Shown: positions 12,456 to 16,551, counted from the first letter of the stretch. The stretch is DNA of 64,000 nucleotides from an uncultured delta proteobacterium (GCA_963775425.1 CAVZJB010000012.1:64001-128000); one strand, 5' to 3'. Program-made: numbers and translations. Notes: generated by a model not told the origin, from the letters alone.

Positions 12456-13274
12456 ATGCTCACCCTCGCGCTCCTCGCCTCGCTGGCGGCACCGGTGGTG
12501 CGCGTCGCCGTCGAAGGCGACGATCCGGTGGTGGGCTTCGTGCGCGCGCGGCTCTCCGCCGCCGGCCTCGCCCTCGTCGAGCCCAACCAGGCCGACGTGC
12601 GCGTGCGCCTGCGCGTCCTCGAGCACGGCGGCATCCACGTCGTCGTCGAAGACCGCCGCGGCGTCCTCGTGGACCGCGACCTCGACGGTGACGAGCCCCA
12701 GGTCGCCGCGTGGCTCGCCGTGCGCGACGCCGTCGAGCGCGTCGACGTCAGCGCGCCGCCGCCCTCCACGCAAAAGCCCGCCCCGCTCCCCGTCGCCGTC
12801 GACGTCCTCGCCGGCGCCGCCCCCGACGTCGGCCTGTCGTCGACGTCGTTCTTCCCCGTCGCGCTCGTCGTCAGCGCGCGCTGGCCCGTGGTCCCCCACC
12901 TCCGCATCGTCGCCGACGCCGGCTACGCCGTCGGCTTTTCGTCGGGCGTCGTGCTCCACAGCCTCCCCGTCCGCTTCGGCGCCGAGGCCACCGGCGGCGA
13001 CGACGTCGAGTGGTCCGCCGGCGCGCGCGTCTCCACCACGCCGAGCCTGGCGGTCTCCGGCTCGCGCGCGGGTGGCGGCGTCGGCGCCGCCGTCGCCGCG
13101 TACGGCCGCGTCGCGTTCCCGCTCGGGCGCGTGCTCGGCCTCGACGCCGCCGCCGTCGTCGAGGCCGGCCTCGAGTCCAAGCTCGTCCGCGAGGTCGTCG
13201 TCACCGACGCCGGCACGCGCCAGGAGCCCCTGTTCGCCGCGCCCGTCTCCGTCGGCGTGGAGGTGCGCCTGTGA
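12456..13274 (+). CDS. Hypothetical secreted protein (possible outer-membrane beta-barrel C-terminus)
   Basis: Signal-peptide-like start, alternating beta-strand pattern ending VSVGVEVRL; typical high-GC codon usage. Confidence 0.6.
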   Translation: MLTLALLASLAAPVVRVAVEGDDPVVGFVRARLSAAGLALVEPNQADVRVRLRVLEHGGIHVVVEDRRGVLVDRDLDGDEPQVAAWLAVRDAVERVDVSAPPPSTQKPAPLPVAVDVLAGAAPDVGLSSTSFFPVALVVSARWPVVPHLRIVADAGYAVGFSSGVVLHSLPVRFGAEATGGDDVEWSAGARVSTTPSLAVSGSRAGGGVGAAVAAYGRVAFPLGRVLGLDAAAVVEAGLESKLVREVVVTDAGTRQEPLFAAPVSVGVEVRL

Positions 13275-13283
13275 GACGTCCTG

Positions 13284-13289
13284 TGTCAA
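13284..13289 (-). promoter_or_regulatory. -35 element (TTGACA) at the IS110 right end; forms a junction promoter with CAACCT (14766-14771, minus strand) at 17-bp spacing on circularisation
   Basis: Minus-strand circle junction reads TTGACA-caggacgtctcattgga-CAACCT. Confidence 0.65.
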
Positions 13290-13312
13290 CCACCGCGCTG
13301 CGTCACGCCATC

Positions 13313-14518
13313 TCAGGCGGCGAGCGCGGCGGCGCGGCCGTGAAGGGCCGGGTCGTACGGGACGCGGGCTTTCCAGCACGCGTACAGCACCCGGAGCCAC
13401 GCACGAGCGAGGATGCGGGTCGCATGCGGGTGGTCGTGGCCGCGAGCGCGGGCAGCGTCGTAGAGGGCGGCGGCCCATGGCGAGCTGTGTCGCGAGTTGT
13501 CGGCCCAGAGGGTCACGGCGGAGCGCAGGTGCTTGTTGCACGCCCACCGGAACGCGACGCCGACGTGCTTGCCGGACGCGAACGTTACGGGGCACACGCC
13601 AGCCTCGGCCTCGAGGTGCTCGTGGCTGTCGAAGCGCGCGCGCTCGTCGCCGAGCTCGCTGAGAATCTGCGCGGCGTTGATGCGTCCGCTGCGCGGAAAC
13701 GACATCACGATGTGCCCGTCGGGGTGCGCCTCGACGGCGTGTTCGACGGCGGCGTTGAGCTTCTTGAGACGTGCGACGACGATGTCGAGGACCGCGACGA
13801 GGTGCTGCACGGCTTCCCCCTTCGCCTCGGCCTCCATCTCGCCGCACTTGCCGCTGGGCGCACCTCGCAAGCGGCCCAGGAGCTCGGCGACGTCCCTGCG
13901 ACCGGAGTAGTGGTTGCGCGCCAGGAACGCTTCGAGCCGCTTCTCGCCGACGCGCTCGGCGTGCTGCGGTGTCGGGTACCTCCCGAGGAACGCCAGCGCG
14001 ATGGGCGAGTCGATGTCGCGGAAGATGCACGCGGCGCCGGCCCAGAAGCTCTCAACGAGCGCGCGCAGCTGGTTCGCCAGTGCAACCCGCTCGGCAACGA
14101 GGTCGCCGCGTGCGCGAACGAGGGCACGCAGCGCCTTCGTCTCGTCTCCGAGCGGCGTGAGCGTCTTGAAGCGATGCCCATCGGTGCGCAGCAAGTCTGC
14201 CAGCAGGTAGCTGTCGCCGGGGTCGCTCTTGGCGCCAACGCTCGAGTAGCGCGGACGCGTCGCTTTCACGACGTTCGGGTGAATCGGCACGACGTGGAAT
14301 CCCGCATCGACCAGCGTGTCGACGACGAGCCCCGTCGGCCGCTCGATGGCGATGCGCAGCGGCGCTTCCTCAGTGAACCTACGGAGCTTCGCCACAGCGC
14401 CGGTGAGACCCTCCTCGGTGTGCTTGACGACGAGGCGGAGCACGACGCTGCCCTTGTCGTCGATGACGCAGACGGCGTGTTCGTTCGCCGCCCAATCCAA
14501 ACCTGCAAAGTACGACAC
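13313..14518 (-). CDS. IS110-family DEDD recombinase/transposase
   Basis: 'FAGLDWA', 'IAIE', 'KSDPGDSYLLA', 'AGVCPVTFASGK', 'ILARAWLRVLY'; AAGGAGG RBS upstream of GTG 14518. Confidence 0.95.
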   Translation of the reverse strand: MSYFAGLDWAANEHAVCVIDDKGSVVLRLVVKHTEEGLTGAVAKLRRFTEEAPLRIAIERPTGLVVDTLVDAGFHVVPIHPNVVKATRPRYSSVGAKSDPGDSYLLADLLRTDGHRFKTLTPLGDETKALRALVRARGDLVAERVALANQLRALVESFWAGAACIFRDIDSPIALAFLGRYPTPQHAERVGEKRLEAFLARNHYSGRRDVAELLGRLRGAPSGKCGEMEAEAKGEAVQHLVAVLDIVVARLKKLNAAVEHAVEAHPDGHIVMSFPRSGRINAAQILSELGDERARFDSHEHLEAEAGVCPVTFASGKHVGVAFRWACNKHLRSAVTLWADNSRHSSPWAAALYDAARARGHDHPHATRILARAWLRVLYACWKARVPYDPALHGRAAALAA

Positions 14519-14544
14519 GACGGACCTCCTTGTTGCGGTACCGT

Positions 14545-14760
14545 CCCCCGGGCTGGGAGCCTTGATCGGTTGCTCATTGACAGGCGCTCCGTCGTCGTCA
14601 GCAAACATCGTCGGGCGCAACGTCCTGTAGCCGCTTCAAGGCTCCCGGCTTCGTCGAGGGGGCGGGTCTCACAGGGGCCGTTCACCGGCAAGCGAGCGCG
14701 GCCCTCCCCGACGAAGCCCGGGAGACGGCGCCGGGAAGATCGCTCAACCCGTCACCGCGG
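14545..14760 (-). ncRNA. Putative IS110 bridge RNA (target-binding and donor-binding loops); ends approximate
   Basis: Perfect stems 14647-14656/14709-14718 and 14555-14565/14636-14646 enclose segments matching the target (14668-14675, 14691-14695) and the element ends (14620-14628, 14573-14579). Confidence 0.8.
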
Positions 14761-14775
14761 CGTAGAGGTTGTCCA

Positions 14776-15303
14776 ATGAGCGACGACGTCGACGCCGTCG
14801 TGCGCGCCCACGGCCCCGACGTCTGGCGGCTGCTCAAGCGCATCTTCGGCCAGCACGCCGACGTCGACGACACCTTCCAGCAGGTGATGCTCGAGGTCGT
14901 GCGCGCGCTGCCGTCCTTCCGCGGCGACAGCGAGTTGTCGACGTGGATCCACCGCATCACGCTCAACGTGGCCTACCAGCGCATGCGGCGCGGCTACCGG
15001 GGTGTCGAGGTCGACCTCGACGAGGCCGGCGTCGCCGTGGCCGACGTCGACGTCGAGGGGCAGGTGGCCGACGCCCAGACCGCGCGCCGCCTCTACGAGA
15101 GCCTCGAGGCGCTGCCGCCCAAGAAGCGCATCGCCGTGGTGCTCCACGACGTCGAGGGCCTCACGCTCAAGGAGATCGGCGAGCGCCTGGGCATCCCGTT
15201 GCAGACCGTGGCGTCGCAGCTCCACTCCGGGCGGGCGATGCTCGCCGAGGCGCTGTTCGTCCAGGGCGAAAACCGCGCGCGCGCGAAGGGGGGCGAGCGA
15301 TGA
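14776..15303 (+). CDS. ECF RNA polymerase sigma factor
   Basis: 'DVDDTFQQVMLEV...FRGDSELSTWIHRITLN' (region 2); 'LPPKKRIAVVLHDVEGLTLKEIGERLGIPLQTVASQL' (region 4). Confidence 0.93.
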   Translation: MSDDVDAVVRAHGPDVWRLLKRIFGQHADVDDTFQQVMLEVVRALPSFRGDSELSTWIHRITLNVAYQRMRRGYRGVEVDLDEAGVAVADVDVEGQVADAQTARRLYESLEALPPKKRIAVVLHDVEGLTLKEIGERLGIPLQTVASQLHSGRAMLAEALFVQGENRARAKGGER

Positions 15304-16446
15304 CGCGCTCCTGCGCCGACGTGCGCGCGCTGCTCGGGGGCTACCTGCACGGCGACGTCGCCCCGCTCGAGCGCACCCTCGTGGAGGCGCACCTCGCCCG
15401 CTGCGCGTCGTGCGCGTCGGTGAAGGACGCGCTCGCGGAGGGGCTCCGCGCCGCGCGCATTGGAGCCCGCGATCGACGTCGAGGGCCTCGTCGCGCTGGT
15501 CAGGGCCGCGCCGTCGTCGACGCCGCCGCTCGGCGTCCCCCTCGACGACTCCCTCGGCGTCTCTCTCGACGTCTCCCTCGACGACGTGCCTGGGCGGTCC
15601 CCGCGCCTCCGGCGCGCGCGCCCGTCGCGTCGCTGGGCGTTCGCCGCGGCGCTGGCGTCGGCGTCGGCGCTCGCCGCGTCCTTCGTTGTCGTCGCGCCGC
15701 GCATGCACGCCACGCCGCCCGTGAGCGCCGCGGCGCCGCCCGCGCTGTCGTCGCCCGCGCTGTCGTCGCCCGCGCCGTCGTCGGCCGCGCCGTCGTCGGC
15801 CGCGCCGTCGTCGGCCGCGCCGTCGTCGGCCGCGCCGTCGTCGCCCGCGCCGGAGAGGGCGGCGCTCCCCGCGCCGCACGACGCGCTCGCGCGCCGCGAC
15901 GTCGGCCCGCGCGCGCCGCGCACGCCGTCGCACCACGCCCACCGCGCGCCGCGCGCGCGCCCGCGCGCCACGCCCCCCGACGACGATGGTGGCGCGCGCC
16001 TCGCGCTCGCGACGCCGCCCGCGCCGGCGCCGCCGGAGGCCGCCCTGCGGGAGGCCGGGCTCGACGAGCTGCTGCCGTTGCTCGACGAGGCGGCCCGTCT
16101 CGGGCGCAACGGCGACGGCGTCGAGGCGCTCGCCCGCTATCACGCGCTGGAGTCCGACCCGCGCTTCGCCCGCCACGTCGACCTCATCGCCTACGAGCGC
16201 GCGCGCCTGCAGGGGCTCGTGCTCGGTGACGTCGACATCGCCCGCGCCGAGCTCGCGCGCCTCGCCGCCGAGGGCGCCGGCCACGTCGCCGACGAGGCCG
16301 CGCTCACGCGCTGCGAGGTGGAGCGCACGCGCGCCCCGTGCGCGGCGCTCACCTGCCTCGACGACGTCGCGCACAGCGGCCGCGGCGCCGCGAGCGACGC
16401 CGCCCACCTGCGCGCCCGTTGGGCCGCGTCTTGCCCCGGACGGTGA
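15300..16446 (+). CDS. zf-HC2 anti-sigma factor with TM segment and TPR-like C-terminus; apparent frameshift near 15460
   Basis: 'MTRSCADVRALL...EAHLARCASC' zf-HC2 motif with ATGA overlap to the sigma stop; continues in the 15460..16446 frame. Confidence 0.78.
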
Positions 16447-16551
16447 CGACGCGCGTTGGTGTGAGGTCGAACTTTGCAAGAGATGCGCCGGAGCGTTTCA
16501 AGGTGAGGCGCTCCGCAGGGACGCGGGCGACGCGCCGGGCGCTTCCCTACG

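Follow-up and report, generated by a model that had tools for sequence, protein, structure and literature searches.

A predicted IS621-type bridge RNA in the left end of an IS110-family insertion sequence from a G+C-rich genome

In 2024, Durrant et al. (PMC11208160) and Hiraizumi et al. (PMC11208158) described the bridge RNA and the recombinase of IS621 from E. coli. In the sections of these papers drawn on here, bridge RNAs are predicted in 85.7% of the catalogued IS110 elements (founding paper, PMC11208160), and a “handshake” rule is given for IS621, by which a dinucleotide of the RNA complements the non-cognate, not the cognate, DNA (PMC11208160, PMC11208158). The same kind of RNA goes by the other name “seekRNA” (Siddiquee et al. 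2024, PMC11187229). The locus described in this study resembles the IS110-type seekRNAs, as they appear in the part of that paper used here, in its non-coding region upstream of the gene, in joined ends that would create a promoter, and in a predicted short RNA that matches both target strands; it is unlike the IS1111-type elements of the same source, whose RNA lies downstream and has its guides in the opposite order. Because bridge RNAs are predicted in so large a share of the catalogued IS110 elements, an IS621-type bridge RNA is an already known kind of molecule, expected by specialists and no surprise to them. What the locus adds is a bridge-RNA recombinase of well-described anatomy, apparently active, from a genome of 71.9% G+C, with a protein very distant from that of IS621 and a readable, slightly different guide geometry; natural variants of this kind help to define the essential features of bridge systems.

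Very probably, in our view, an intact IS110-group insertion sequence has its left non-coding end at positions 14545-14780 (minus strand), and an IS621-type bridge RNA is encoded there. The anatomy of the region, a conserved fold, the covariation of guides with both target and donor, intact catalytic residues and recent copying carry this reading. All positions are those of the window, the whole 64,000-nucleotide stretch of DNA that was analysed, in which the DNA around the element is very G+C-rich. The element and its gene are placed as follows.

13276..14780, minus strand: IS110-family insertion sequence, 1505 bp with one CTCA copy counted; four identical full copies with divergent flanks
14777..14780, minus strand: CTCA of the left junction (core CT plus CA), from copy comparison
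13272..13275, minus strand: CTCA of the right junction; on the plus strand TGAG, which holds the upstream-ORF stop TGA (13272-13274)
13313..14518, minus strand: recombinase gene; likely start GTG at 14518-14516, 6 nt after AGGAGG at 14530-14525

The ends of the element were set independently of the guides, from four full copies and one partial copy in the same genome. Along their roughly 1.5 kb, the full copies are 100% identical to one another. In gene sense, all five copies start with CTCATTGG... (the same start is also given as CTCATTGGACAACC...), and the four full copies share the terminus ...ACAGGACGT (also given as ...TTGACACAGGACGT), beyond which the flanks differ. The right flanks read CTCACAG(G/C) in 4/4 full copies, and the part that the left flanks of the five sites have in common before CTCA is (C/T)G alone. 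The left end, 262 nt long and non-coding, lies upstream of the gene; the right end is 37 nt, and a short core stands at both junctions, which is the layout of the IS110 group. Every property of an IS110-group element that could be tested was found in this one. Since the four full copies are 100% identical and lie at different sites, the copying was recent; in other words, the insertion sequence is an intact and recently active member of the IS110 family. An empty site was not recovered, the upstream gene being found in 0 of the 30 relatives searched. The truncated fifth copy (L005, G000:C18:86450-87382) keeps the left 933 bp, which hold the bridge RNA region and codons 1-226 of the gene, and it lies away from the contig ends.

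For the protein analyses, the 402-codon translation of 13313-14521 was used. It matches the Pfam families PF01548 (N-terminal RuvC-like DEDD; 1.5e-32) and PF02371 (C-terminal Tnp; 2.3e-14), and it scores 183.1 bits, against a cut-off of 140, with the NCBIfam equivalog model NF033542, “IS110 family RNA-guided transposase”. Residues D9, E60, D100 and D103 (402-residue numbering) are invariant in 8/8 aligned proteins. S316, within FASGKH, is aligned with the YESGSS stretch of IS621, which presumably holds the catalytic S241, and a serine occupies this position in 7/8 aligned proteins. The solved IS621 protein is a distant match (E = 3.8e-7), chiefly over the C-terminal domain; the ISCro4 transposase (PDB 9t56), a second solved IS110-family recombinase, compared by protein only, matches the C-terminal domain as well (E = 9.7e-7). 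Judged from its sequence, the protein is an IS110-family RNA-guided transposase of the DEDD/Ser type, with an open frame and intact catalytic residues.

The first-pass annotation of this DNA had read the non-coding end as a bridge RNA with two perfect stems and all four guide segments. The parts of the RNA, as they stand after folding and comparison with homologues, are listed here.

14545..14760, minus strand: predicted bridge RNA region; its 5' end is placed from the candidate -10 box; fold z = -6.25, conserved structure
14701..14715, minus strand: outer stem of the target-binding loop, 5' strand; pairs with 14650-14663, with a bulged conserved A at 14705
14691..14699, minus strand: left target guide GCGCUCGCU; its last two bases are the core CU, and the linker U follows at 14690
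14677..14689, minus strand: distal hairpin of the target-binding loop, GCCG-GUGAA-CGGC; 4 pairs, 99.6% of cells paired, 3 compensatory
14668..14674, minus strand: right target guide CUGUGAG, complement of CTCACAG; covariation at target positions 12-14
14666..14667, minus strand: handshake guide AC of the target loop, complement of donor positions 6-7 (GT)
14650..14663, minus strand: outer stem of the target-binding loop, 3' strand; all 14 pairs with compensatory changes
14636..14646, minus strand: outer stem of the donor-binding loop, 5' strand; perfect 11 bp with 14555-14565
14621..14628, minus strand: left donor guide ACAGGACG, identical to the element right end 13284-13277; variable positions covary
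14584..14618, minus strand: distal stem-loop of the donor-binding loop, with a GCGC...GCGC base of 4 bp, 100% paired and almost invariant
14573..14579, minus strand: right donor guide CAAUGAG, complement of the left end CTCATTG; covariation at positions 12-14
14571..14572, minus strand: handshake guide CA of the donor loop; its C complements the target G just before the core
14555..14565, minus strand: outer stem of the donor-binding loop, 3' strand; pairs with 14636-14646

Both stems are exact: 14647-14656 is the reverse complement of 14709-14718 over 10 bp, and 14555-14565 is that of 14636-14646 over 11 bp. The loop motifs also lie, on the minus strand, where the annotation had put them (TCGCT at 14695-14691, CCTGTGAG at 14675-14668, ACAGGACGT at 14628-14620 and CAATGAG at 14579-14573), and their order, left target, right target, left donor and right donor guide (LTG-RTG-LDG-RDG), was borne out as the published one, in two stem/internal-loop modules. 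Each module, the target loop coming first, runs through an outer stem with a bulged conserved A, a 5' guide, a linker, a hairpin, a 3' guide, the handshake bases and the closing stem strand. The single-sequence fold of 14522-14780 (minus strand) has an energy of -140.2 kcal/mol, against -109.9 +/- 4.9 kcal/mol for 200 shuffles (z = -6.25), and none of the 200 was as good as the native sequence.

Two scans of contigs from one genome per species yielded 84 related loci from many phyla, with 45-67% protein identity; in the second scan, the best 80 of 396 relatives were kept. A conserved G(A/G)GCGCC anchor was present in 83 of the 85 left ends (our own included), 81 of them had enough upstream DNA, and 72 were distinct. 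In the resulting alignment (A2, 71 distinct rows), the consensus comprises 32 pairs in seven helices; 94.9% of the alignment cells are paired, against 33.5-45.6% after sliding the 3' partners by 1-3 columns, and compensatory changes occur in 24 of the 32 consensus pairs, three of which belong to the outer stem of the donor loop and likewise show such changes. The covariation score of 0.503, against 0.176 for shuffled alignments, was reached by 0/500 shuffles. These figures lend strong support to a predicted two-loop fold that is maintained by compensatory changes across the homologues. The guides covary with their partners in three of the four cases.

Rfam 15, searched over 13000-15200, returned no family, with eight sub-threshold chance matches only (E 0.52-9.6); within the RNA region there was one sub-threshold match, COG2908 at 13.7 bits, on the opposite strand. 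Among the sequencing runs listed for this DNA none is of RNA, and the nine DNA entries each contain 0.09 or less of the sampled words. The two loops resemble each other at window position 14705 and A2 columns 23, 54-55 and 104-105: each has a bulged A in the 5' strand of the outer stem, and in each a conserved GA precedes the 3' strand of the distal hairpin. Such pseudo-symmetry is reminiscent of the flipped-out A residues of IS621, as far as the consulted sections go (PMC11208160, PMC11208158). Upstream of the target loop, the single-sequence fold alone gives a possible 5' stem-loop, CGGG...CCCG, at 14752-14731 (minus strand).

Set beside IS621 as presented in the parts of PMC11208160 and PMC11208158 used here, the locus shares a DEDD plus Ser recombinase, a long left and a short right end, a target loop followed by a donor loop, 5' guides that read as the DNA top strand and 3' guides complementary to it, a left target guide of 9 nt followed by one linker base and a hairpin, a handshake dinucleotide behind each right guide, a probable CT core, and a candidate -35 box in the right end. 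It differs in its right guides, which are continuous and 7 nt long for target and donor alike, whereas those of IS621 are of 4 nt and of 9 nt pairing discontinuously. Moreover, the left donor guide stops before the core here, pairing up to donor position 6, the CA after the core is nearly fixed (hence a shared CTCA), and the natural pairing of the left target half is weak.

The guide columns were taken from the homologue alignment, and the matches of our own element were compared with 20000 dinucleotide shuffles of 14545-14780. Of these shuffles, 339 contained the right-target match of 7 nt, 98 the 8-nt copy of the right end (left donor guide) and 129 the 7-nt complement of the left end (right donor guide); none contained all three. 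Among the homologues, the right target guide agrees with the right flank at positions 12-14 in fractions of 0.98/0.89/0.77, against 0.72/0.39/0.44 for permuted pairings (57 unique pairs), and the observed values were reached by 0/2000 permutations; over the same 57 pairs, the signal is absent from position 15 on. A column-by-position scan of 37 pairs gave z = 5.6-7.7 at three right-guide columns. The guide covaries, and its place stands as first annotated; the 8-nt length does not, the guide being 7 nt (CUGUGAG) and the extra 5' C showing no covariation. Other registers between target loop and target, off-diagonal or with bulges, were also considered, and the full scan of the 37 pairs left the three right-guide columns only.

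For the donor guides, the element ends were located by guide-independent motifs, and single-candidate loci only were used, which dropped 34 loci for the right end. At its two variable positions, the left donor guide agrees with the right ends in fractions of 0.91/1.00, against 0.48/0.58 when permuted (22 unique pairs). Its match and its covariation held, and the 9 nt first ascribed to it shrink to 8, since the ninth base agrees at the chance level (0.50 vs 0.52). The right donor guide CAATGAG, annotated as the reverse complement of the left end CTCATTG, was confirmed in full: the match is beyond chance, and the guide covaries with left-end positions 12-14 (0.97/0.97/0.95 vs 0.51/0.71/0.70; 39 unique pairs).

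This covariation also bears on another account of the structured left end, namely that it guides nothing and merely serves the recombinase mRNA as a leader or binds protein as an end, and that the matches come from shared ancestry. The left end does lie directly upstream of the recombinase gene, so that co-transcription is possible, and the donor guides are fairly conserved, with 10 and 9 distinct sequences among the 72 left ends. Nevertheless, the guides change together with the matching positions of ends and flanks while permuted pairings between elements fail, and the right flank is host DNA, which cannot share ancestry with the element. Because the guide covariation has already been seen, we regard the leader-only account as wrong and give it hardly any credence.

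Further bases follow the right guides and fit the handshake rule. AC stands after the right target guide in 71 of the 72 left ends and complements the GT that terminates every right end; C stands after the right donor guide in 70/72 and complements the invariant G before the target core, target position 7 being G in 5/5 of our own sites and in all 47 relatives' sites. In other words, the handshake bases pair with the non-cognate DNA, and neither pairs with its own DNA; as these positions are invariant, the agreement is one of sequence fit and carries no covariation.

The left target guide pairs weakly with natural left flanks. It is a 9-nt variable block between a conserved GCC and the 1-nt linker with the hairpin; it is the most variable segment, with 55 distinct sequences among the 72 left ends, and it ends with CT in 68/72. 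Its placement thus agrees with the first-pass annotation, whereas the TCGCT match on which that placement had been based is, taken alone, at the chance level (4953/20000 dinucleotide shuffles). Over 47 unique pairs, agreement with the left flanks is 0.11/0.34/0.45 at positions 1-3, against 0.13/0.26/0.33 permuted, which is not significant; at positions 4-6 it is 0.43/0.51/0.72, against 0.29/0.31/0.53 (p = 0.0125, 0.0005 and <0.0005). The core and position 7 always match. A shift of the register by 1-3 nt lowers the mean match from 5.55 to 1.6-2.4 of 9.

An alternative register, GGCCGCGCU, lies one repeat unit upstream and ties with the chosen one on our five left flanks (29/45 each, by hand tally). 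It was rejected because the 9-nt variable block of the homologues abuts the linker and hairpin and ends with CT in nearly all of them.

The genome contains 212 CTCACAG sites, against about 766 expected from base composition, and four of them are occupied. The five left flanks of our own copies match the left guide at 4, 6, 3, 3 and 3 of the seven non-core positions; among the 92 free CTCACAG sites with G at position 7, the mean is 3.05 of 7, and six match at 6/7. No CTCACAG site in this genome matches the left guide at 7/7. It may be that natural recognition of the left half is loose; otherwise, the copies seen here would occupy sites that are second-best. These numbers also bear on a narrower reading, in which the bridge RNA is real, the left target guide contributes little, and the choice of target rests on the right guide, the core and the preceding G, with a specificity of about 8-10 bp, not 14. 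What our own sites have in common is G-CT-CACAG alone, the left-flank covariation is weak, and agreement with the left guide is no higher at occupied sites than at many free ones; in addition, a preprint, in the part drawn on here, speaks of “half-match” recombination for IS621, although the context there is donor-arm recognition and off-target insertion. On the other hand, the left block is the most variable of all and still lies above permutation at positions 4-6, all nine non-core target positions matter for IS621 in the portion of PMC11208160 used here, and five own sites are too few for testing this reading. We hold it to be a serious possibility, though less likely than not.

The first-pass annotation had also proposed a 4-bp CTCA shared at the junctions. 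The sharing is real (14780-14777 and 13275-13272, minus strand), and CTCA is shared in nearly all relatives; an exchanged core of CT(C) is more likely than one of all four bases, given the analogy with IS621 and a natural variant, L102, in which the target has CTCC and the element CTCA. With CT as the core, the conservation of CA would have a different cause, taken up below with the placement at gene junctions. Three relatives, L025, L027 and L029, use GT(C/T)A instead, and their right target and right donor guides end in AC, not AG; their left target guides end in GT (L027 and L029) or GC (L025). Such changes in the guides of core variants are consistent with pairing to the core.

The right end may also supply part of a promoter.

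13284..13289, minus strand: TTGACA, candidate -35 box in the right end, which faces the left end only in the circular form
14766..14771, minus strand: CAACCT, weak candidate -10 box, 17 nt after the -35 box across the joined ends; 2/6 matches to TATAAT

Of 40 unique junctions, 32 have TTGACA in the right end, and the hexamer ends 8 nt short of the core. In the left end, 16-18 nt further downstream, the best candidate for a -10 box agrees with TATAAT at only two positions in 18 junctions and at three in 14. A scan of both strands of the integrated copy gave 0 promoter-like sites; it also gave one terminator-like site, located within the hairpin of the donor loop, where chance alone would give 0.7 such sites over the scan. 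The conserved TTGACA and the promoterless integrated copy fit, without proving, a promoter that would be rebuilt on circularisation.

It might be argued from the missing promoter-like site, and from the truncation of one of the five copies, that the window holds a relic that is no longer active. Yet four full copies are identical throughout, the reading frame is open with its catalytic residues intact, and a promoterless integrated state is just what the IS621 model leads one to expect; a relic is accordingly a very improbable explanation.

For an active element, the following course can be proposed. By analogy with IS621, the excised element would join its ends, which would put the conserved TTGACA of the right end beside the left end and allow the left end to be transcribed. 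The RNA would fold into a target-binding and a donor-binding loop, the DEDD/Ser recombinase would bind it, and strands would be exchanged at the shared CT, the presumed cleavage site; the AC and CA after the right guides would fit the published handshake with the other DNA. A system of this kind may be reprogrammable.

The position of the target with respect to genes is a separate matter. IS621 targets repeat elements; the targets here differ in being gene junctions. On the strand opposite the recombinase gene, the target reads NNR-TGA-G, or equally R-TG-AGC-G, and in the window it joins the following features.

12456..13274, plus strand: upstream ORF, which ends in the target TGA; GC3 0.99 in that frame, no Pfam family
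14765..14778, plus strand: GAGGT (14765-14769), a 6-nt spacer and ATG (14776-14778), a Shine-Dalgarno-like arrangement facing outward into the ECF sigma gene, of putative function
14776..15303, plus strand: ECF sigma factor gene, with its start codon inside the IS end; GC3 0.99 in frame

The product of the ECF sigma gene matches Sigma70_r2 with residues 9-73 at model positions 2-68. Before the insertion, the upstream ORF and the ECF sigma gene would have overlapped in GTGA, and two genes at such an RTGA overlap are probably translationally coupled.

The same arrangement recurs in the relatives. ACCT is conserved in the left ends, and both right guides end with (A/G)UGAG (66 and 68 of the 72 left ends), so that, on the gene strand, every element end carries an RTG that follows the conserved AGGT at a distance of 6 nt. 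The RTG frame supplied by the IS has the top GC3 in 38/44 loci (binomial p = 5e-13 vs one third), and in 33/44 it either runs without a stop for 100 codons or more or is still open where the locus ends, after 60 or more. Among the 35 RTG frames of at least 60 codons, 26 have a Pfam match at E <= 1e-5; in 17 of those 26, the match begins at model position 1-4 and no later than residue 36, as expected of true N-termini. At 54 unique sites, the original start codon was ATG in 43 and GTG in nine; the frame ending in TGA has the top GC3 in 34/54 and in 29 is additionally open for at least 60 codons. Where both flanks are long enough (36 loci), a downstream gene is seen in 29, an upstream gene in 23 and both in 20. 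The insertions of the relatives are always antisense to the two co-directional genes. It is thus solidly established that most relatives are placed exactly in the RTGA stop/start overlap between co-directional genes.

Within our own genome, a simple frame test finds the pattern in the window copy only (1/5). The open frames at the other four copies are short (18-51 codons), their frame 0 does not have the highest GC3, and a stop-to-stop survey of the computed empty sites is ambiguous in this G+C-rich genome. Three relatives, L092 (272-637, minus strand), L046 and L081, appear to be intragenic, with Pfam matches starting at model positions 362/472, 70/252 and 172/323, and they lie in frame at an internal RTGAGC.

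We see an even chance that the partly fixed guides of this clade (...RUGAG in both right guides and ...GCU in the left target guide) direct a gene-sparing docking in one orientation, which splits an operon and leaves both frames intact. The duplicated CTCA would leave the upstream TGA in place, and the left end would give the downstream gene an RTG and an AGGT at 6-nt spacing. The docking may be an adaptation, and the Shine-Dalgarno-like motif and start codon that the element supplies may be used. If confirmed, this docking habit, with the restoration of the start codon, would show an RNA-guided element evolving low-cost landing sites, and it would also bear on annotation because the start codon of the neighbour gene would lie inside the IS.

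Elements of the IS900/IS901/IS116 type insert between the ribosome-binding site and the start codon. The present element is like them in being of the IS110 family and in inserting beside start codons in a specific orientation, and unlike them in that its crossover falls within the RTGAG of a stop/start overlap, where the terminus of the element takes the place of the start codon. Among the papers listed in the literature search, none deals with IS110 elements docking at a start codon or overlap; the predicted bridge RNAs and targets catalogued with PMC11208160 and PMC11208158 may already include this clade.

Past the ECF sigma gene, at about 15300-16450 on the plus strand, the frame of an ORF at 14769-16229 contains the N-terminus MTRSCADVRALLGGYLHGD...HLARCASC, which is anti-sigma-factor-like. 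An ORF at 15460-16446, in a different frame, carries a short tandem peptide repeat, PALSS/APSSA, of about eight units.
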